From an uncultured Gaiellaceae bacterium (GTDB lineage: Bacteria > Actinomycetota > Thermoleophilia > Gaiellales > Gaiellaceae), in the NCBI GenBank assembly GCA_963763755.1, contig CAVXQE010000002.1:184576-248575 (forward strand): DNA of 64,000 nt, read 5' to 3'. A program made the position numbers and the translations under genes. How positions within the stretch are numbered: the first letter of the stretch is position 1; the number at the start of each line of letters is the position of its first letter. Shown piece by piece: positions 4,522 to 55,757 of the stretch. The notes beneath the pieces were generated by a model. That model saw nothing but the letters and a program-made list of their open reading frames with translations, was not told the DNA's origin and did not search any database.

Positions 4522-7035
4522 TCAGTACGCGCTCGCGTCGGGACCGCGCGTGAACCGGCCGGCCGGCGGCGTCCAGCCGCTGGGTGCGCTGCCGGTGTTG
4601 CCGCAGAAGGTGTTGCCGGTACCGATCGGGGCGTCGAATCGCGCTACCGAAGTGGTAGTTCGTACCTTCCGGCATTGACCGGGGCGAGGTCCCTGCGGTC
4701 TGCCGCGATGTAGGTCCCGTCATGCTCTAGTGCCGACCGGGGGGCCGAAGCGTTGCCCGGGCGCGACACGTTCCCGTCCGTCGGGCGGGAGGGCGACCAC
4801 CAGTCCGGGTACTTGAAGAACACGTCCATCACCGCGCAGTTCCGGAGGTGGAGTTGCGGATGATCAGCCCTCCGGCACCTCGATGTCCGCGCACTCGGTG
4901 TGCACGCCGCTGGTCTTGAGGACGACGTCGTGGAAGAGGACGTTGTCGAAGACGATGCCGGCGCCATCGACGAGCGCGCCCTTCTGATCGGCGACGTTGC
5001 CGATGCTGCGTTCTTGAACGTAAACGGCTCGCCGCCGTTCTCGAACAACGCACCATCGGAGCCACCGAGCATCGCCATCTGCGCATCAACGTTGATCCCG
5101 TCGAAGATCAGGTTCGGCGAACGGAAATGGATCTGCCGAACAGCGTTACCCGGCTGACCCTTGAACGTCAGCGCCTTCGCTGCCACCGCCCTGAGAGGAG
5201 CCCGTGCCGCCAGCAAAGAACTGGGTCGGGTACACGCCCGAGCCGACCGACACCGTATCGCCCGAACCCGCAACCTCATAGGCACGAGCGAACGAGCGGC
5301 ACGGAGCAGCCTGCGTGCAGGCAGCCGCATCAGAACCACTCGGCGACAGATACAAGTTCGCCGCAGGAGCCGCAGGGAGGCGGCGGAGGCGGCGTACAAG
5401 CAGCCGTGGTAGCAGACATCGAGGCCTTGGCGGAGCGATTGCCTGCCGCATCGAACGCGTCGACGGCAAGCCCGTAGTTCGTCCCACAGGACAGGCCCGA
5501 GAACGTAAACACCGTTCCCAGAGCGCTCGAAACCAATGACCCACCGTTGTAACGTCGATACCCGGTCACGGCCACATTGTCGGTCGAAGCATCCCACGCG
5601 ACCGACGACGACGTCTGCGTCGTCCCGGTCCCGCGCAGGTTCCCGGCCACGGACGGGGCCTTGTCCGACGGCGGCGGGCAGGGGCTCGTAGCGGCGGTGA
5701 GCGTCGCCTTGTTCGAGCGGTTGCCGCGGCGTCGTAGGCGTCGATGGCGAATGTGTAGCTGCTGCCGCAGGCAAGGGCGGTGTAGGTGTGGCTGGTGGCG
5801 GTGGTGTTGGCGATCAGGCTGGTGTTTTGGTAGCGGCCGTAGCCTGTGACGGCGGTGTTGTCGGTGGAGGCGTTCCAGCTGAGTGCGAGGCTGGTGGTGG
5901 TCGCACTTGTCAGTGTCAGGTTGGTCGGTGCTGTCGGCGCTGTCGTATCGCCACCCGCTGCACAAGCGCTGGTCGAACTCGTCGCGCCGTCTTCCCGGAG
6001 CGGTTACCCGCCGCGTCATAGGCATCCACCGCAAGCGTGTAACTCGTGCCACAGGCAAGACCGGTGTAGGTGTAGCTGGTGGCGGTGGCGCTTGAGAGCA
6101 GGGTGGTGTTTTGGTAGCGGCTGTAGCCGCTGACGGCGGTGTTGTCGGTGGAGGGGTTCCAGGCGACCGCGAGTGAGGTTTGGGTTGCGCTGGTGGTTTG
6201 GAGGTTGGTGGGTGCGGTTGGGGCCTGGGTGTCGGCCGGCGGCGGCGGGGGGGTTGTGCTGGTGGCGACCGGGGTTGCCATGTCGGTTTTGACCTCGGTG
6301 GGGGTGAGGGCGCGGTTGAAGACGCGGACGTCGTCGAGTGAGCCGTTGAACCATTCGGGCCAGACGGCGTTTCCGCCAGGCGTAGCGGCGAGTTGGAGGT
6401 GCGATCGCGCCGGTCTGGGCGCGGGTTGCGACCTGGACGCCGTTGCGTAGACGCGGATCGTGACGCCGTCATCGGTGGTGGCGAGGCGTGTCCAGCTGTT
6501 TTTGGGTAGTGCGGTGGGCGCGTTGGCGCGCTGATCGCCACCGACTTGGACGTGGCCGCTCGGGCCGGAGGCGCCGTTGTGGGCGTAGAGGGCGTAGGCG
6601 AGGTTGCCGGGCTGCTCTTTGATCAGCGGCGGTTCTCCAGCGGAGCCGAGGCTGCTGGGGGGACCCAGGCCTCGAGCGTCATCGCGCTCGAGAGGTCAAG
6701 CTCGCGGAGTCGGCTACGGTGACCCAGTCGTTGACACCGTCGAAGCGCAGAGCGGCCCGTTCTTGCCCGCGGTTGTCCAGGCGGCACCGGAGATCGTGCC
6801 CGTGTTCGCGTTGCCGGAGTCATCGCGGAGGCTGCGCCGCTGCCGGCATCAAAGCCGTAGGCGGCAACCAGTTCGGAGCGGCTGCGCTGGCGAACGAGCC
6901 TGCGCCGGCAGCACCGGCCAGACAGACAACGAGAAAACACCCGAGCAGCAGGCGTGCGCCAGGAACCAGCCTGACAATCCTCGAACGCGGATCAGTCGCA
7001 GTGCTACCAGTCACTTGCGGAAGCGTGCTGTGCAT
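4522..7035 (-). CDS. secreted LamG - 3x FN3 - beta-helix protein (paralogue P1; multiple frameshifts)
   Basis: Signal-peptide-like start MHSTLPQ...RLVPGARLLLGCFLVVCLAGAAGAGS (ATG at 7035). The LamG-type block is LVAAYGFDAGSG...MTLEAWV...WFNGSLDDVRVFNRAL. There are three FN3 units (LAVAWNPSTDNTAVSGYSRYQN...GLACGTSYTLAVDAYDAAGNRS and similar). The beta-helix part is LYLSPSGSDAAACTQAAPCRSFARAYEVAGSGDTVSV...FDGINVDAQMAMLGG. Confidence 0.65.
5703..6064. repeat. about 360-nt segment nearly identical to 13261..13624 (FN3-coding part of paralogues P1 and P2)
   Basis: Line-by-line comparison of 5701-6070 with 13261-13630 shows only a handful of substitutions and three 1-nt indels. Confidence 0.85.
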
Positions 7036-7268: not shown

Positions 7269-8170
7269 TTGTTACGCTCGAAACATGTCGCCGTCGACGT
7301 CGTTGTCGTCTCGTACAACAGCCGCGACGAGCTTCGCGGCTGCGTGGAGCCGCTCTCGGCGCTCCCGGCGCGTGCACGTCATCGTCGTCGACAACGCGTC
7401 GCCCGACGGGAGCCTCGAGGCGGTCGGCGGACCTGCCGGTCGACCGCGATCGCGCTCGAGCGAAACGGCGGCTTCGCGCACGGCTGCAACGCCGGCTGGC
7501 GAGCGGGGTCGGCGCCCTACGTGCTCTTCCTGAACCCCGACGCGCGCATCGACGCCGAGTCGCCTCGACGCGCTCGTGCGGGTGCTCGAGGAAGCACGCG
7601 GAGGTCGGCGCCGTCGCGCCGCGCATCGTCCACGCCGACGGCAGCCTCGACTACTCGCAGCGCCGGTTCCCGCGACTGCGCTCGACGTACGCCCGGGCGC
7701 TCTTCCTGCACCGGGTCTTTCCGGCGGCGTACGTGGACGGACGAGCTGGTCCGCGAGCCGGCAGGCCTACGCGCGCCGAGCTACGCCCGACTGGGTCTCC
7801 GGCGCCTGCCTCCTCGTGCGCCGCTCGGCGCTCGAGGAGCTCGACGGGCTCGACGAGGGCTTCTTCATGTACTGCGAGGACATCGACCTCTGCCGGCGGC
7901 TTGCGCGCCGCCGGCCACGAGCTGGTCTACGAGCCCGACGCGCGGTCGTCGCGCACGAGGGCGGCGCCTCGGCGCCACGGCGCGTCGCTGCTGCCCGTCC
8001 TGGCGGCGAGCCGGATCCGCTACGCGACGAAGCACCGGAGCCGGCTCGGCTGCGCTGCTCGAGCGCGGCGGCGTCGCGCTCGAGGCGCTGACGCACGTCG
8101 TCGTCTCGCAGGGCGGCCGGCGCTGCCCGGGCCGGCCACGCGCGGTCGCTGCTGCTAGCGCGTCACGAAC
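7269..8170 (+). CDS. GT2-family glycosyltransferase (rhamnosyltransferase-like; frameshifted, ends approximate)
   Basis: [25 protein letters not shown] / [19 protein letters not shown] / [33 protein letters not shown] / [39 protein letters not shown] / [11 protein letters not shown], distributed over three frames. Confidence 0.65.
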
Positions 8171-48339: not shown

Positions 48340-48439
48340 GCTTCGATTGAATCAGGAATCGTGGCGGCTGCGCGATCGGCGTTTGCGGTTCTTCGCTCTA
48401 AGCGCGGAATGGTCTTTCCCGTGCCCTATCGTCCGGGTC

Positions 48440-48829
48440 ATGAGCAAGGCCTTGCGTCTCGACCATTGCGTGATCGCGGTCTCCGACTGGGAGACGTCGA
48501 ACGCGTTCTACCGTGACGTCGTCGGCGCCGAGATCCTCGACGTTGGAGCCGGCCGGTTCGCGTATCGCCTCGGCGACACGCAGCTGAACGTGCACGGCCC
48601 TGGTGTCGACGTCGGCAGCCTTGTCGGGCGGCTTCCCGTCCAGCCGGGTAACAGCGACCTCTGCTTCGTCTGGGCGGGGTCGATCGAGGAGGCAGTCGCG
48701 CATCTCAGGGTGCAGGGCGTCGCGGTCGAGTCGGGCCCGATGGACACCTTCGGCGCGGCTGGTCCCGGTACCAGCGTCTACTTCCGCGACCCGGACGGCA
48801 GCCTGCTCGAGTTCATCTCGTATGGCTAG
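48440..48829 (+). CDS. VOC (glyoxalase/bleomycin-resistance/dioxygenase fold) family protein
   Basis: MSKALRLDHCVIAVSDWETSNAFYRDVVGAE...YFRDPDGSLLEFISYG, 129 aa. Confidence 0.8.
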   Translation: MSKALRLDHCVIAVSDWETSNAFYRDVVGAEILDVGAGRFAYRLGDTQLNVHGPGVDVGSLVGRLPVQPGNSDLCFVWAGSIEEAVAHLRVQGVAVESGPMDTFGAAGPGTSVYFRDPDGSLLEFISYG

Positions 48830-49886
48830 CGAGCGCGTCCTGAGCCGGCGCGAGCTGAATCGCGCGCTGCTGGAACGGCAGCTGCTCCTGGAACGGAAGC
48901 CGCTCAGTCCGGTGAAGGCGGTGGAGCGGCTCGGTGGCCTGCAGGCGCAGTCCACGACGAGCCCGTACCTCTCGCTCTGGGCGCGCCTCGAGGGCTTCGA
49001 GCGCGAGCAGCTCGTGCGGGCGCTCAAGGGACGCCGGCTGGTAAAGGCGATCATCCAGCGCGGGACCCTGCACATCGTCACGCCGTCGGACTTCTGGGCG
49101 TTCGCGACCGCGCGCCGCGAGCTGGGAGGGATTCTCTGGCCGCCCTCGTACGCGGCACGCCTACCGACGGCCCGGCTCGCCGAGCTCGCGGCCTCGGTCG
49201 CAGCCACGCTCGAAGGAGTCGAGCTGACGTTCAAGGAGGTGCGCGCCCTGCTCGAGCCGTACGAGAAGCCGGGGCTCTCCCCGACGTTCATCTGGCGCCG
49301 CATCCAGGGTCACGCCTACATCGTCCACGTCCCGCCGTCGGGGATCTGGGGCTACGGCGGCCACGGTGTGTACACGGCCGCCGAGGGAACGCTGGCCGGC
49401 GGTCCGCCACCACCCGAGGAGGCATTCGACCGGCTCGTCCGCAGCTATCTCGCGGCCTACGGGCCGGCGACCAAGCAGGACATCGGGCAGTGGGCCGGCA
49501 TCCCGCGCGTGGCGCCGATCACCGCCTCGCTCGAGCGGCAGTCGCTGCGAATGTTCCGCGACGAGCAGGGACGCGTCCTCTACGACCTACCGCGGGCGCC
49601 GCTGCCGGACGCCGGGGCGGTCGCCCCCGTGCGGCTGATTCCCCGCTTCGACAATCTCGTGCTCTCGCACGCCGACCGGTCGCGAATCCTGGGCGACGTG
49701 CCTCCGTCGCGCATCGTCACGAACAACGGGATCGTGCACGCGACGATTCTCGTCGACGGCTTCGTGGCGGGAACGTGGCAGCTCGAGCAGGGTCGCGTTG
49801 CGCTCGAGCCGTTCGCACCGCTCGCTCGGAGCTCGCAGCTCGCGCTGAAGGACGAGATCGAGCGCCTCGAGACATTTGTTGAGTAG
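48822..49886 (+). CDS. winged-helix DNA-binding domain protein, AlkZ/YcaQ-like DNA glycosylase family
   Basis: MASERVLSRRELNRALLERQLLLERKPLSPVKAVERLGGLQAQS...VKAIIQRGTLHIV...RLVRSYLAAYGPATKQDIGQWAG...RLIPRFDNLVLSH...ILVDGFVAGTW. The start overlaps the VOC gene by 8 nt. Confidence 0.7.
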   Translation: MASERVLSRRELNRALLERQLLLERKPLSPVKAVERLGGLQAQSTTSPYLSLWARLEGFEREQLVRALKGRRLVKAIIQRGTLHIVTPSDFWAFATARRELGGILWPPSYAARLPTARLAELAASVAATLEGVELTFKEVRALLEPYEKPGLSPTFIWRRIQGHAYIVHVPPSGIWGYGGHGVYTAAEGTLAGGPPPPEEAFDRLVRSYLAAYGPATKQDIGQWAGIPRVAPITASLERQSLRMFRDEQGRVLYDLPRAPLPDAGAVAPVRLIPRFDNLVLSHADRSRILGDVPPSRIVTNNGIVHATILVDGFVAGTWQLEQGRVALEPFAPLARSSQLALKDEIERLETFVE

Positions 49887-50062
49887 CGAGATTTGGCTTG
49901 TTTATGCGGAAAAACCGTGCTAGAGTCTCGTTTGTCGCGTGCCAAAGCGAGTGGCGCCGCGTGAATCGACCGCCCTCAGCAAAGCAGGTCGGGTTCCAGG
50001 GCCGGTGGAGCCGTGCCGCCGGCGATGACCGCAGGCTGGGGTTGAAGGGTCGAGAGAATGAC

Positions 50063-50483: not shown

Positions 50484-51512
50484 CTAGACGAGAGTCGTCA
50501 GGTACTCCTCCAGGCCGCCGCTCTGTGCGAACGACTCGAAGGTACCGGCGTACGCCATGTCGGGGTGGGCGACGTCCGAGAAGGCTGTCGAGATCCGAGT
50601 CGCGGCCTCGAGGGCCGACACGCCCTCGTGGTTGACGGCGAAGAGCGAGCGGATCGAGTTGCCTGAGCTGGCGAGAAGCTGGAGGAGCCCCGAGTCGAGC
50701 CCGCTGTATCCGACCGAGAGAATGTTGAGTCCATCTGTCGCGCCCAGCCGGTTGCGGATGAAGTCCAGGTGACTCTCGGGGCAGTTGAACTCGTCGTCGG
50801 GTCCGAGAGGCACGGAGATCGCGGGGTAGTAGAGATGAGGCGGGTCGCGGCGCAGAAGCTCGACGCTCGTCCGACGCAGCTCGATCTCGTCCGAGAGCTC
50901 CGGCACGTCGTCGAGGCTCGCCACGAACTCGCTCAGATAGAGGTCGGACTTGTCGACGGCTGCGTGATCGACGCCGACGATCCGGCGCGCCCAGTCCACC
51001 GACCCGTGGAGCTTGATCAGCGACCACGCGAAATCCGGACGGATGTAGTCGCTCAGCGACCGAACGTGAGCGTGCTGTTCGAGCCGGCTGTCGAGGATCG
51101 TGTCGTAGTTCAGCGTGAGGAAGATCACCTCGTTCGCCGAGCGCAGCACGCCGTTGATCAGGCGGTCGTAGTTCACGGGATGGGTGGTGTAGTGCTCGCT
51201 CACCTCGTGCAGCAGGTGCTGCAGGTAGAGCGGGATCGCGCGGTAGCGCCGGCGGTCGTAGGCCGCGGGTGAGCGCAGGACCTGATCGCGCAGATACGTC
51301 TCGAGGCCGACCGAGCCGGTACGGGTCGCCACGCGGAGGTCGGGTGCGAGCGTCTGGGCGTCCGGGTAGAAGTCGAGGATCGGGTGGAACGCGGTTCGCT
51401 CGGCGAAGAGCTCCTTCACGAGCGGCGGCTGCCAGTTCAGATCGCGCGGCTCGATCCCCGTCGAGTCGTACGAGGCCCCGGCGCCTGTGATCACGATCAG
51501 CTGCTCAGTCAC
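50484..51512 (-). CDS. stand-alone SIR2-like (SIR2_2 type) NAD-binding protein
   Basis: Intact 342-aa ORF with a GTG start. It carries the ordered sirtuin-type motifs ITGAGAS (res 8-14), TLNYDT (132-138) and KLHGS (167-171), and later ILSVGYSGLD. Confidence 0.8.
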   Translation of the reverse strand: MTEQLIVITGAGASYDSTGIEPRDLNWQPPLVKELFAERTAFHPILDFYPDAQTLAPDLRVATRTGSVGLETYLRDQVLRSPAAYDRRRYRAIPLYLQHLLHEVSEHYTTHPVNYDRLINGVLRSANEVIFLTLNYDTILDSRLEQHAHVRSLSDYIRPDFAWSLIKLHGSVDWARRIVGVDHAAVDKSDLYLSEFVASLDDVPELSDEIELRRTSVELLRRDPPHLYYPAISVPLGPDDEFNCPESHLDFIRNRLGATDGLNILSVGYSGLDSGLLQLLASSGNSIRSLFAVNHEGVSALEAATRISTAFSDVAHPDMAYAGTFESFAQSGGLEEYLTTLV

Positions 51513-51576
51513 CTACAGACCATAGGCGACTATTGCCACTTGTGTTGACAATCGGCGGACGTGATGGGCGTGATGC

Positions 51577-52347
51577 TCAGACGGTGCGGGGTCGCCATGG
51601 CTCGTGCTCGTGCGCGAGCCAGACAAGCTCGGGGTCGAGCGCGCGCACCCGCAGCTGGCCTTCGGTGTGCGGCTCGTCGAGCTCGCCGAACCAAACCGCC
51701 ACGTCGCCGCCGACGACGACCGGACGCCCGCCAGTCTCGACGACGACCACCTGCATGCCGCGTGTGTGGCCCGGCGCCGGGACGAGCCGGAGCCCGGGAA
51801 GCAGCTCGAGCTCGCCGTCGACCGGCACGTACCGCACGCCGGGCGCCTCGACCCACTCGCGAATGGTGTAGTCGTCCTCGCTGCGCGCGTCGTCGAGCTC
51901 CCGACGCTGGACGTAGATCGGCCTGCCGGTGAAGAGGTGGTTGCCGCCGCAGTGGTCGAAGTGCAGGTGTGTGTTGACGACGATGTCGATGCCGGCGAGG
52001 TCGAAGTCCTGCTTGCTCAGTGGACGGAGGCGGGGATCGAGATCGGCCACCGCCGGGTGCAGCTCCGTCATGCCGGTGTCGACCAGCACACGCGCATCGG
52101 GATGGTCGATGACGTGCACGTTGACCGGCATCCGCTCGCCCTCGGCGAGCAGGTCGGCAACGCGGACCGGCGTGATGGTGACTCGAGAGCGGGGGCGCTC
52201 ACTGTGTACGGACCGCCGCGGTGGCGGTTGCTCCTCGAAGGCAGTCGACAGGTCGGTGAGCGACTCTGGGCTACCGGCAGACGCCGGTATGCTGGCGGAT
52301 CCCGCGTTCGGAACGATCGTCGGCCAGTCATTGTCCTCGCTGTTCAT
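51577..52347 (-). CDS. MBL-fold metallo-hydrolase (lactonase-like); true start probably downstream of 52347
   Basis: VLVDTGM...DIVVNTHLHFDHCGGN (HxHxDH) ...VPAPGHTRGM...GGD. The first about 55 residues are low-complexity. Confidence 0.8.
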   Translation of the reverse strand: MNSEDNDWPTIVPNAGSASIPASAGSPESLTDLSTAFEEQPPPRRSVHSERPRSRVTITPVRVADLLAEGERMPVNVHVIDHPDARVLVDTGMTELHPAVADLDPRLRPLSKQDFDLAGIDIVVNTHLHFDHCGGNHLFTGRPIYVQRRELDDARSEDDYTIREWVEAPGVRYVPVDGELELLPGLRLVPAPGHTRGMQVVVVETGGRPVVVGGDVAVWFGELDEPHTEGQLRVRALDPELVWLAHEHEPWRPRTV

Positions 52348-52417
52348 CAGCGGTGCGAGTGCAAAGACCGCGCGAACCAGGCGGTGTTGCCGGCGTGCAG
52401 TCGCGATCTGGCGTGAG

Positions 52418-52489
52418 TGGGCGCACCTGGGATTGAACCAGGGACCTCTCGCGTGTGAAGCGAGCGCTCTCCCGCTGAGCTATGCGCCC
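52418..52489 (-). tRNA. tRNA-Val (anticodon CAC)
   Basis: GGGCGCA TA GCTC AGCGGGA GAGC G CTCGC TTCACAC GCGAG AGGTC CCTGG TTCAATC CCAGG TGCGCCC A folds as a 72-nt cloverleaf. CCA is not encoded. Confidence 0.9.
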
Positions 52490-55349: not shown

Positions 55350-55382
55350 TCCGCGCGCTCCTCGGATACCCTGTGCCCGCCC

Positions 55383-55471
55383 GGAGAGGTGTCCGAGCGG
55401 CCGAAGGAGCGCGACTGGAAATCGCGTAAGCGTCGAAAGGCGTTTCGCGGGTTCAAATCCCGCCCTCTCCG
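55383..55471 (+). tRNA. tRNA-Ser (anticodon GGA)
   Basis: GGAGAGG...CGCGA CTGGAAA TCGCG... has a long variable arm and the T-loop GGGTTCAAATCCC. The acceptor CCTCTCC is followed by G. 89 nt. Confidence 0.9.
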
Positions 55472-55475
55472 TCGA

Positions 55476-55512
55476 CCAAAGACTCCGCCACGCGGGGTCT
55501 TTGGTGTCTTTC
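55476..55512 (+). terminator. intrinsic terminator after tRNA-Ser
   Basis: CCAAAGACTCCGC cac GCGGGGTCTTTGG followed by TGTCTTTC. Confidence 0.5.
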
Positions 55513-55541
55513 AGCCCGGTCGCGCCCGAGCGGAGCCTTCG

Positions 55542-55757
55542 CTAGACGACGATCGACGCGCTGGCGTCCGTGTTCGACGCACGCCACACCTGCAGCATGA
55601 GATCGAGCTCCAGGCGCCGCCCGCGCGCGTTCATCGAGCCGAGCTGGGAGATCTCGACCTCCCGCGGCCCGACCTGCTCCGCGTTCACGTGCACGTGCCC
55701 GGTGAGGAACGCGAGCAGGCTCGGAACGAGCTGTGGATCACTGACTTCGATACGCAT
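55542..55757 (-). CDS. small conserved hypothetical protein (71 aa), paralogue of 45155..45373
   Basis: See 45155..45373. It lies 88 nt downstream of, and co-directional with, the collagen-like gene. The RBS is weak. Confidence 0.45.
   Translation of the reverse strand: MRIEVSDPQLVPSLLAFLTGHVHVNAEQVGPREVEISQLGSMNARGRRLELDLMLQVWRASNTDASASIVV

Follow-up and report, generated by a model that had tools for sequence, protein, structure and literature searches.

Can a SIR2 domain that is encoded by itself act as an immune NADase? The characterized bacterial SIR2 effectors that destroy nicotinamide adenine dinucleotide (NAD+), as far as our searches of literature and structures brought them up, are all coupled to a recognizable sensor or partner, whether SLOG, HerA, a prokaryotic Argonaute (pAgo) with APAZ, STAND, the C-terminal part of the DSR proteins or KomA/KomB. 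The question is raised by a gene in a stretch of 64,000 nucleotides (hereafter the window) from contig CAVXQE010000002.1 of an uncultured Gaiellaceae bacterium (positions 184,576–248,575). The gene encodes a protein of 342 residues, and a preliminary description of the window had read it either as a minimal single-gene SIR2 effector or as part of a module with the metallo-β-lactamase (MBL)-fold gene, and possibly the small protein, encoded beside it. We found that the protein belongs to an uncharacterized stand-alone clade inside the SIR2_2/SIRim subfamily: its predicted fold is that of SIR2, its active site is conserved, no further domain is fused to it, and the MBL gene and the small open reading frame (ORF) are incidental neighbours. 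The explanation that we tentatively prefer is that it is a self-contained, latent NADase of the immune type, gated within one polypeptide, although an anti-phage role of the protein is plausible but unproven.

Identity and predicted structure of the SIR2 protein

The ORF of the preliminary description was recovered intact (Table 1). Its SIR2 motifs were present in the order previously given, with ITGAGAS at residues 8–14, TLNYDT at 133–138 (not 132–138, as first assigned), KLHGS at 167–171 and GYSGLD at 268–273, and the corresponding columns were invariant or nearly so in an alignment of 71 family sequences. Invariant across the 71 full-length homologues were G10-A-G-A-S14, N135-Y-D137, K167-L-H169-G-S171 and W174. 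An additional conserved patch, Y-P230-A-x-S-V-P235 ... C-P245-x-x-H248, was specific to the family, whose characteristic invariant residues are P29-P30-L31, E71, Y96, W174, P230, P235, P245, H248 and G268.

Because the match of the single sequence to SIR2_2 was weak, the SIR2 assignment draws on family-level and structural evidence. In a Pfam scan, SIR2_2 (PF13289) was the sole match in the window protein, scoring 19.4 bits (E 0.0012) over residues 130–179 only, which is below the gathering score of 24.5 bits. The canonical sirtuin model PF02146 gave no match to the protein at E ≤ 0.01, an NCBIfam search gave none, and the best E value from the PADLOC SIR2 models was about 7e-4. A search of the PDB with the single sequence found nothing, and a profile was needed. 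By comparison, 67 of the 71 homologues matched PF13289 individually (best E 4.8e-11), and the family profile retrieved PsSIR2 (8w9l, E 1e-6), E. coli SIR2-HerA (8j4u) and ThsA (6lhx) from the PDB. In the profile alignments, the SIR2 motifs fell on the TTNYD and KLHGS motifs of 8w9l, and N135 and H169 fell on N112 and H152 of ThsA. The original SIR2_2 call therefore stands as to SIR2 identity, with a significant match to the hidden Markov model at the level of the family and a sub-threshold score for the protein itself. The catalytic Asn and His, whose loss on alignment the preliminary description had singled out as decisive, were both present and invariant. Judged by alignment and model together, we consider it secure that the window protein is of the SIR2_2 type with an intact catalytic Asn (N135) and His (H169).

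AlphaFold2 modelled the protein as one compact domain (predicted local distance difference test 96.2; predicted template-modelling score 0.93), with a helical small subdomain at about residues 43–125. Since this subdomain is all-helical and the protein has a single Cys, it contains no zinc module. In a Foldseek search against the PDB, the top 22 matches were SIR2 chains, either from SIR2-HerA complexes or of PsSIR2 by itself (8w9l), with E values of 8e-7 to 1e-4, template-modelling (TM) scores of about 0.5 and identities of 12–17%. CobB and SIRT5 followed, and SPARSA, KomC, ThsA and DSR2 ranked lower; the structural comparison with ThsA and DSR2 that had been proposed at the outset thus placed both below the SIR2-HerA subunits. 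Neither Pfam nor the AlphaFold2 model revealed a fused SLOG, SAVED, CARF or other ligand-sensor domain in the 342 residues, in agreement with the earlier claim that nothing is appended to the SIR2 domain.

The preliminary description had also noted a low G+C content (GC), which could hint at foreign origin. The value is indeed lower, at 66.1% against 69.2% for the window and 69.0 ± 2.4% for the 35 window genes of at least 150 amino acids, among which SIR2 is the third lowest. The size of the contrast had been overstated, and 60-nt lines inside the gene span 62% to 72%. GC at third codon positions (GC3) was 0.89, rank 28 of 35 and above the window average, and GC at second positions (GC2) was 0.42, the lowest of all window genes. 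With native GC3 and the lowest GC2, the lower overall GC is an effect of amino-acid composition, and we rejected horizontal transfer as an interpretation of it.

Family distribution and inheritance

A word-indexed search returned 158 homologues, nearly all of 320–430 amino acids. An exhaustive profile search over 1.84 billion cluster representatives (clusters at 50% identity) counted 1,899 representatives at a threshold of E ≤ 1e-30, rising to 3,136 at E ≤ 1e-10 and to 7,408 at E ≤ 1e-3. Of the 1,899, the best 150 were all 262–431 amino acids long, matched end to end and were without a fused sensor. The family is patchy over at least ten phylum-level groups, with homologues in Gaiellaceae, Solirubrobacterales, Chloroflexota/Dehalococcoidia, Patescibacteria, Nitrospira, Acidobacteriota, Gemmatimonadota, Planctomycetota and one Bathyarchaeota, and the genome matches all came from uncultured organisms. 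Orthologues of 91–94% identity were present in four Gaiellaceae species representatives and the next-best genome match was 53% identical, with no orthologue of 53–91% identity among the species-representative genomes. A search of BFVD returned canonical viral sirtuins only.

Some family members in metagenome-assembled genomes were split into two ORFs or truncated (L046, L066, L051, L064, L040 and L010); in L064, SIR2 was found as two high-scoring segment pairs with the N-terminal 100 residues missing. These members may be pseudogenes or assembly indels. The apparent second SIR2 genes that Pfam and PADLOC reported beside L046, L066 and L051 proved in each case to be a fragment of the family gene itself. 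The only genuine tandem pair that we saw was in L009 (Solirubrobacteraceae), in which a second, more divergent SIR2_2 gene of 393 amino acids (L009:11040–12221; PF13289 E 1.8e-13) lies 4 bp behind the family member on the same strand.

To follow the gene within its own clade, we compared the window with five close relatives from Gaiellaceae (L001, L002, L003, L004 and L078), whose SIR2 proteins are 91–96% identical to that of the window. Against the five orthologues, SIR2 had a synonymous substitution rate (dS) of 0.35–0.49 and a ratio of non-synonymous to synonymous rates (dN/dS) of 0.08–0.10. The dS of the backbone genes was 0.27–0.53, with dN/dS values of 0.09–0.10 for the M29 peptidase, 0.17–0.20 for AlkZ and 0.02 for dnaX. 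The match between the dS of SIR2 and that of the backbone genes indicates that SIR2 has been inherited vertically together with its dnaX-ybaB-recR-ask-asd neighbourhood. Judged by its substitutions, SIR2 is a functional gene in this clade.

Neighbouring genes and the upstream element

The features around the SIR2 gene are listed in Table 1. The MBL gene had been described as lying immediately before SIR2 and in the same direction, with SIR2 64 nt downstream, and this placement is correct. The MBL ORF has a Pro/Ser-rich N-terminal extension of about 70 residues ahead of its Lactamase_B domain (residues 73–217), and its true start codon may be internal. Its best named similarity was to AiiA-type N-acyl-homoserine lactonases, at 97.5 bits versus a curated cut-off of 375, and the gene should be annotated as an MBL-fold hydrolase only. 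A tblastn search with the MBL protein found nothing within ±10 kb of SIR2 at 77 genome loci.

Table 1. Coordinates of the SIR2 gene and the features around it (window positions unless a relative's locus is named)
Feature	Position	Strand	Remarks
SIR2_2/SIRim-type stand-alone gene	50484–51512	minus	GTG start, 342 aa
Conserved upstream element, ~45 bp	51513–51557	minus	Travels with the SIR2 gene in six genomes
MBL-fold hydrolase gene	51577–52347	minus	Lactamase_B E 7e-21
Variable slot	51559–52416		Lies between the 3′ end of tRNA-Val and the upstream element of SIR2; holds only the MBL gene here
tRNA-Val(cac)	52417–52489	minus	ARAGORN
Convergent hypothetical ORF, 127 aa	50063–50446	plus	Longest ORF starts at 49898
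Cupin_2 gene, L001	L001:11036–11626		Convergent with SIR2
Cupin_2 gene, L002	L002:6865–7404		Convergent with SIR2
Cupin_2 gene, L003	L003:11026–11568		Convergent with SIR2
Cupin_2 gene, L004	L004:11031–11582		Convergent with SIR2
Cupin_2 gene, L078	L078:11026–11379		Convergent with SIR2

Comparison by blastn with L003, L004 and L078 showed that synteny breaks at the 3′ end of tRNA-Val (window 52416–52418), and collinearity with the relatives picks up again at window 51552–51558, some 45 bp before SIR2 begins. As synteny stops at the tRNA and resumes at the SIR2 upstream element, the MBL gene is interchangeable cargo of the slot between them. The slot is 858 bp long in the window and has other lengths in the relatives (L078, 0.6 kb; L003, 4.9 kb; L004, 6.6 kb), and L001 differs from the window throughout the 10 kb upstream. 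The cargo of the slot in the relatives is ordinary, comprising an MFS transporter, a 1,085-residue LuxR-type AAA_16-GerE regulator, SnoaL, VanY, an RTX protein and a glyoxalase, and the sole PADLOC match in this cargo was between the GerE helix-turn-helix region of the regulator and a CARF-type model. The small accessory block that had been proposed beside tRNA-Val thus holds for the MBL gene and not for SIR2, which is retained in place in all five relatives.

The tRNA-Val 3′ end behaves as an insertion hotspot. In L003, a normal tRNA-Val (4957–5029) is accompanied 2.9 kb further, inside the slot, by a partial copy (7926–7994; 50 nt, 92% identical to the 3′ part, window equivalent 52418–52467). 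This duplication resembles an attachment site (att) and suggests that an integrative element inserted at tRNA-Val. In the window, no tRNA-Val-derived repeat of at least 14 nt was found, and we rejected the idea of an island bounded there by tRNA-Val att repeats. A second indel hotspot lies at the 3′ end of tRNA-Ser(gga) (window 55382–55543 versus L078:2547–6278), where L078 has an insert of about 1.5 kb (FUSC_2), then a conserved piece of 77 bp and then 2.2 kb with MFS_1, ChrB_N and ChrB_C. Elsewhere in the neighbourhood, the ORF of the AlkZ-like DNA glycosylase (48603–49886, 427 amino acids) overlaps that of the glyoxalase (48347–48829); since the relatives align from residue 102–103 and the Pfam domain begins at residue 107, the actual start of AlkZ probably lies near 48906–48909.

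On the other side of SIR2, the convergent 127-residue ORF was found where it had been described, separated from the SIR2 stop by a 37-nt spacer. It had no Pfam, NCBIfam or PADLOC match. Homologues stand beside SIR2 only in L001, L003 and L078, each time with a cupin gene between; L002 and L004 lack the ORF, and in L064 it lies 4–9 kb from SIR2. Absent or displaced in relatives, and with no homologue beside other family members, it was rejected as a partner of SIR2 and is a lineage-specific ORF. Collinearity with the relatives ends 16 nt past the SIR2 stop. Directly after this stop, a convergent Cupin_2 gene of about 180 amino acids is present in five of five relatives and missing from the window, and L089 and L093, an unrelated pair that is syntenic with each other, have a 138-residue, sub-threshold cupin-like gene that is also convergent with SIR2. 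We considered the cupin as a hidden recurrent partner, but this is probably coincidence: jackhmmer did not link the two sets and found no others.

Neighbourhoods across the wider family gave a similar picture. Clustering of the ORFs within ±5 kb by BLAST found no shared gene save one 11-locus cluster, which, from adh_short genes at matching positions, appears to consist of short-chain dehydrogenases, a count that looks compatible with chance for so common a family. An all-against-all phmmer comparison of the immediate neighbours yielded no cluster of more than three loci, no Pfam family occurred in more than 4 of the 119 immediate neighbours, and flanking genes varied in orientation, spacing and size. 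There is, then, no conserved SIR2 neighbour across the family. The commonest immediate neighbour family was phage integrase (4 of 119), rve, IS66 and IS21 transposases also occurred, and a few of the 119 matched models of type IIG restriction–modification, MADS, DISARM or PDC-S systems.

Twelve Pfam-annotated contexts, looked up for diverse family members, ranged widely. L078 has a core context like that of the window, core or metabolic chromosome contexts include L079 and L091, and that of L083 is rich in hypothetical genes. HNH and ResIII genes stand beside the L082 member; L088 is an integrase/ParB/DnaB/DUF5131 element on an IMG/VR viral contig, and the L092 member lies between DDE transposases, with HicB. 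Toxin–antitoxin (TA) genes beside some members were TacA/TacT and PemK. In L080 (and in L081, which is identical), about 4.5 kb separate a 55%-identical homologue from a 505-residue protein (L080:917–2434) with a phage tail-fibre-like C terminus (phrog_24210, E 1.8e-21); that protein is part of an unannotated co-directional block that abuts rny-recX-recA and is probably a prophage end. Prophage ends are a typical site for accessory or defence ‘moron’ genes. A conserved core-genome context without links to mobile or defence genes, which the preliminary description had held to speak against defence, was found in the Gaiellaceae clade and not across the family, where prophage, integrase, transposon, TA and some defence neighbours occur.

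The one upstream feature that accompanies SIR2 is its element of about 45 bp. It contains GATTGTCAAC at 51553–51544 and a −10-like hexamer of the TAnnnT type, TATGGT (51524–51519), which ends 6 nt before the GTG; an in-frame TAG (51515–51513) lies directly upstream of the start, and no Shine–Dalgarno sequence was found upstream of it. In the six-genome alignment, the TTGTCA, CCTAT and GGTG columns were invariant and the sequence farther upstream was unrelated. A strict sigma-70 scan of the element was negative, because the spacer between TTGTCA and TATGGT is 21 nt. From conservation and geometry only, we infer that the element is the gene’s own promoter and gives a leaderless or near-leaderless transcript. 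Leaderless transcripts are common in Actinomycetota. As only these 45 bp or so are conserved upstream and everything beyond differs between genomes, SIR2 would form its own transcription unit. The relatives’ element carries three ATTGTC repeats, spaced 19 and 10 nt from start to start, of which the window copies are degenerate (ATTGTC, ATAGTC and ATGGTC), and the element may serve as a leaderless promoter, as a regulator’s operator or as both. The window holds no other copy of it, and hence no regulon that shares it.

Competing explanations and known systems

How might such a protein work alone? We propose a Rossmann-fold NAD+-binding enzyme with an Asn/His pair, transcribed alone from its element of about 45 bp, that would be a latent NAD+ glycohydrolase or possibly an ADP-ribosyltransferase. 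Gating would reside in the single polypeptide, most likely through self-assembly into a higher-order oligomer or filament, or alternatively through binding of a trigger to the helical subdomain or to the conserved patch (P230, P235, P245 and H248). Activation would then deplete NAD+ and arrest growth, in an abortive-infection or stress-type response. The defence hypothesis is kept alive by the patchy distribution of the family and by the occasional prophage, integrative-element, TA and defence-gene neighbours of its members. We regard the self-contained, latent immune-type NADase as possible rather than probable. A bolder version, which we think doubtful, is that the family represents the smallest self-contained sirtuin immune system, in which sensing, gating and NAD+ destruction are combined in one SIRim domain of about 345 residues that is activated by self-assembly, as a functional counterpart of FAM118, and which is stably chromosomal in some lineages, including this clade.

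Several results weigh against an immune NADase, and many of them favour a housekeeping or regulatory NAD-dependent enzyme that ADP-ribosylates or deacylates a target, or turns over NAD(P), with no role against phage. SIR2 occupies one chromosomal position in six Gaiellaceae genomes, beside AlkZ-glyoxalase-dnaX-ybaB-recR-ask-asd; its codon usage is native; and, with a dS equal to that of the backbone genes and a dN/dS like that of the M29 peptidase, purifying selection acts on it as strongly as on housekeeping genes, even though both its flanks are indel hotspots. This stable, core-like inheritance weakens a defence role in the clade, and the relatives’ slot cargo includes no match to a defence-system model. 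In Solirubrobacterales, L090, L012 and L016 have in common a thiolase–SIR2–aminotransferase IV arrangement, co-directional in L090 with gaps of about 5 and 54 nt (L090:6835–9890), which is operon-like and metabolic and sits uneasily with defence; L089 and L093 likewise keep a conserved DsbD...SIR2...DinB...NadE context. Plasmid and phage collections gave no family match and 2.9 million viral contigs gave one full-length match only, PADLOC models matched weakly across the family (best E about 1e-9 to 1e-10), and the association with mobile and defence genes, which is real for a minority of loci, is suggestive only because the counts lack a matched control. Moreover, the 342-residue protein has no recognizable sensor, and its SIR2-HerA relatives need a HerA-type ATPase for activation. 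We nevertheless judge the housekeeping explanation to be rather unlikely. Canonical deacetylation requires a zinc module that SIR2_2 proteins lack (PMC12700824), and the window protein, with its one Cys and all-helical subdomain, is without it. The nearest relatives in sequence and structure are defence NADases, not CobB-type sirtuins. Nor would a housekeeping enzyme be expected to show so patchy a spread with no conserved context, the gap in orthologues below 91% identity, or members at a prophage end, on an integrative element and between transposons.

The missing sensor and the dependence of the best structural matches on HerA could instead point to an effector that acts in trans, with its partner or small-molecule signal encoded elsewhere (such as an ATPase resembling HerA, or a synthase of nucleotide signals), and small molecules do activate two SIR2 effectors, KomC and ThsA. 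This is unlikely, given that the protein has no SLOG, SAVED, CARF or other ligand-sensor domain, that prokaryotic defence partners are almost always adjacent and none recurs in the 119 neighbours or the 12 annotated contexts, and that the TM score to the SIR2 of SIR2-HerA is about 0.5 at 14–17% identity. A growth-arresting NADase held in check as a TA or addiction toxin, by a variable, fast-evolving antitoxin or by its own regulation, would explain through selfish stability why SIR2 is retained amid the turnover of its neighbours; small hypothetical ORFs often flank family members, and TacAT, PemK and HicB beside some of them mark TA-rich, island-like regions. However, no family of small flanking proteins extends past a single lineage, and since the MBL gene, the cupin and the small ORF come and go while SIR2 stays, no flanking gene can be an essential antitoxin, which makes a toxin very unlikely. 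Finally, the comparative data refute the two- or three-gene module of MBL, SIR2 and small protein that had been proposed initially, and we give it almost no credence. What speaks for it, the shared direction and 64-nt gap of the MBL gene and the convergent small ORF, is confined to the window. MBL homologues are missing from within 10 kb of SIR2 at the 77 loci, the slot at the five orthologous loci contains other cargo, and the small ORF is missing or displaced. The other architecture first suggested, the minimal single-gene SIR2, survives, with no recurrent neighbour. For annotation, neither the MBL hydrolase nor the small ORF is to be labelled as part of a system.

To a specialist, an orphan SIR2_2 protein would come as no surprise, but the size of the family makes this candidate worthwhile: about 1,900 clusters in Actinomycetota, Chloroflexota, Patescibacteria, Nitrospirota, Acidobacteriota and other phyla are without the sensor or partner of the characterized effectors. 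Should the members of the family prove to be active NADases, they would reveal how a SIRim domain with nothing attached stays silent and then switches on, and would offer in bacteria a model for FAM118, the stand-alone sirtuins of vertebrates. Should they prove to be housekeeping enzymes, a branch without immune function would stand out within a subfamily that is now assumed to be immune.

The SIR2_2/SIRim subfamily contains all known antiphage sirtuins, and, compared with canonical sirtuins, its bacterial members are reported to show a 12-fold enrichment in the vicinity of antiphage systems (bioRxiv 10.1101/2024.09.18.613514). Within it, the preliminary description had found no match to described architectures, and this holds for ThsA, DSR1/2, SIR2-HerA, SPARSA, Avs5 and Kongming. 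The window protein resembles the SIR2 effectors of these systems in domain type and probable chemistry, but lacks the architectural hallmark of each. SIR2-HerA (Nezha; PDB 8sub, 8su9, 8j4u, 8wld and 8w9l) provided the best match in both profile (8w9l) and fold. Its SIR2 is likewise a separate polypeptide, of about 340–415 amino acids, with a helical subdomain, a GAGAS-type loop and the TxNYD and KLHGSxxW motifs. The window gene differs in having no HerA beside it, and none recurs beside family members; the TM score and identity are those given above, and the PADLOC ‘SIR2’ model matched the window protein at E 7e-4 and the family at about 1e-10 at best. Thoeris ThsA (SIR2-SLOG) is also of the SIR2_2 type and shares the aligned Asn/His pair, but the window protein carries no C-terminal SLOG (or Macro/TM) domain and no TIR-domain ThsB is encoded beside it. 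ThsA is also a weaker match in fold (7uxt, E 1e-2), and only 1 of 71 family members matched the ThsA PADLOC model (E 8e-4). DSR1 and DSR2 are, as may be the case here, single-gene systems with a SIR2 NADase effector; theirs is an N-terminal SIR2 followed by large middle and C-terminal sensors (DSR2 chains are about 950 amino acids), whereas the present protein has 342, and 3 of 71 family members matched the Dsr2 model (E about 5e-5).

More remote are the SIR2-APAZ proteins of SPARSA, whose Aga_SIR2 models were matched by 47 of 71 family members, the most of any PADLOC model (best E about 1e-9); the window protein has no APAZ domain and the window no pAgo neighbour. Kongming KomC gave weak fold matches only (E 4e-3 to 3e-2), with no KomA/KomB neighbours here, and in Avs5 (SIR2-STAND) a STAND NTPase and a C-terminal sensor are fused to SIR2, in contrast to the single domain of the window protein. 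Canonical sirtuins (CobB and SIRT5; PF02146) have in common with it the Rossmann NAD core and the catalytic His, with fold matches of E 3e-4 to 1e-3. The window protein is set apart from them by the missing Cys4 zinc-ribbon module, by the missing PF02146 match and by about 90–120 extra residues. In overall architecture, the closest likeness is to vertebrate FAM118A and FAM118B (SIRal), which belong to the same class of about 350 residues with a single SIR2_2 domain. FAM118A/B, ThsA and Avs5 need filament formation for NAD processing, and FAM118 is reported to be a vertebrate-specific clade with its own surface patches (PMC12700824). No FAM118 structure was among the top 50 Foldseek matches; FAM118 is the nearest architectural analogue of the window protein, and not a close relative.

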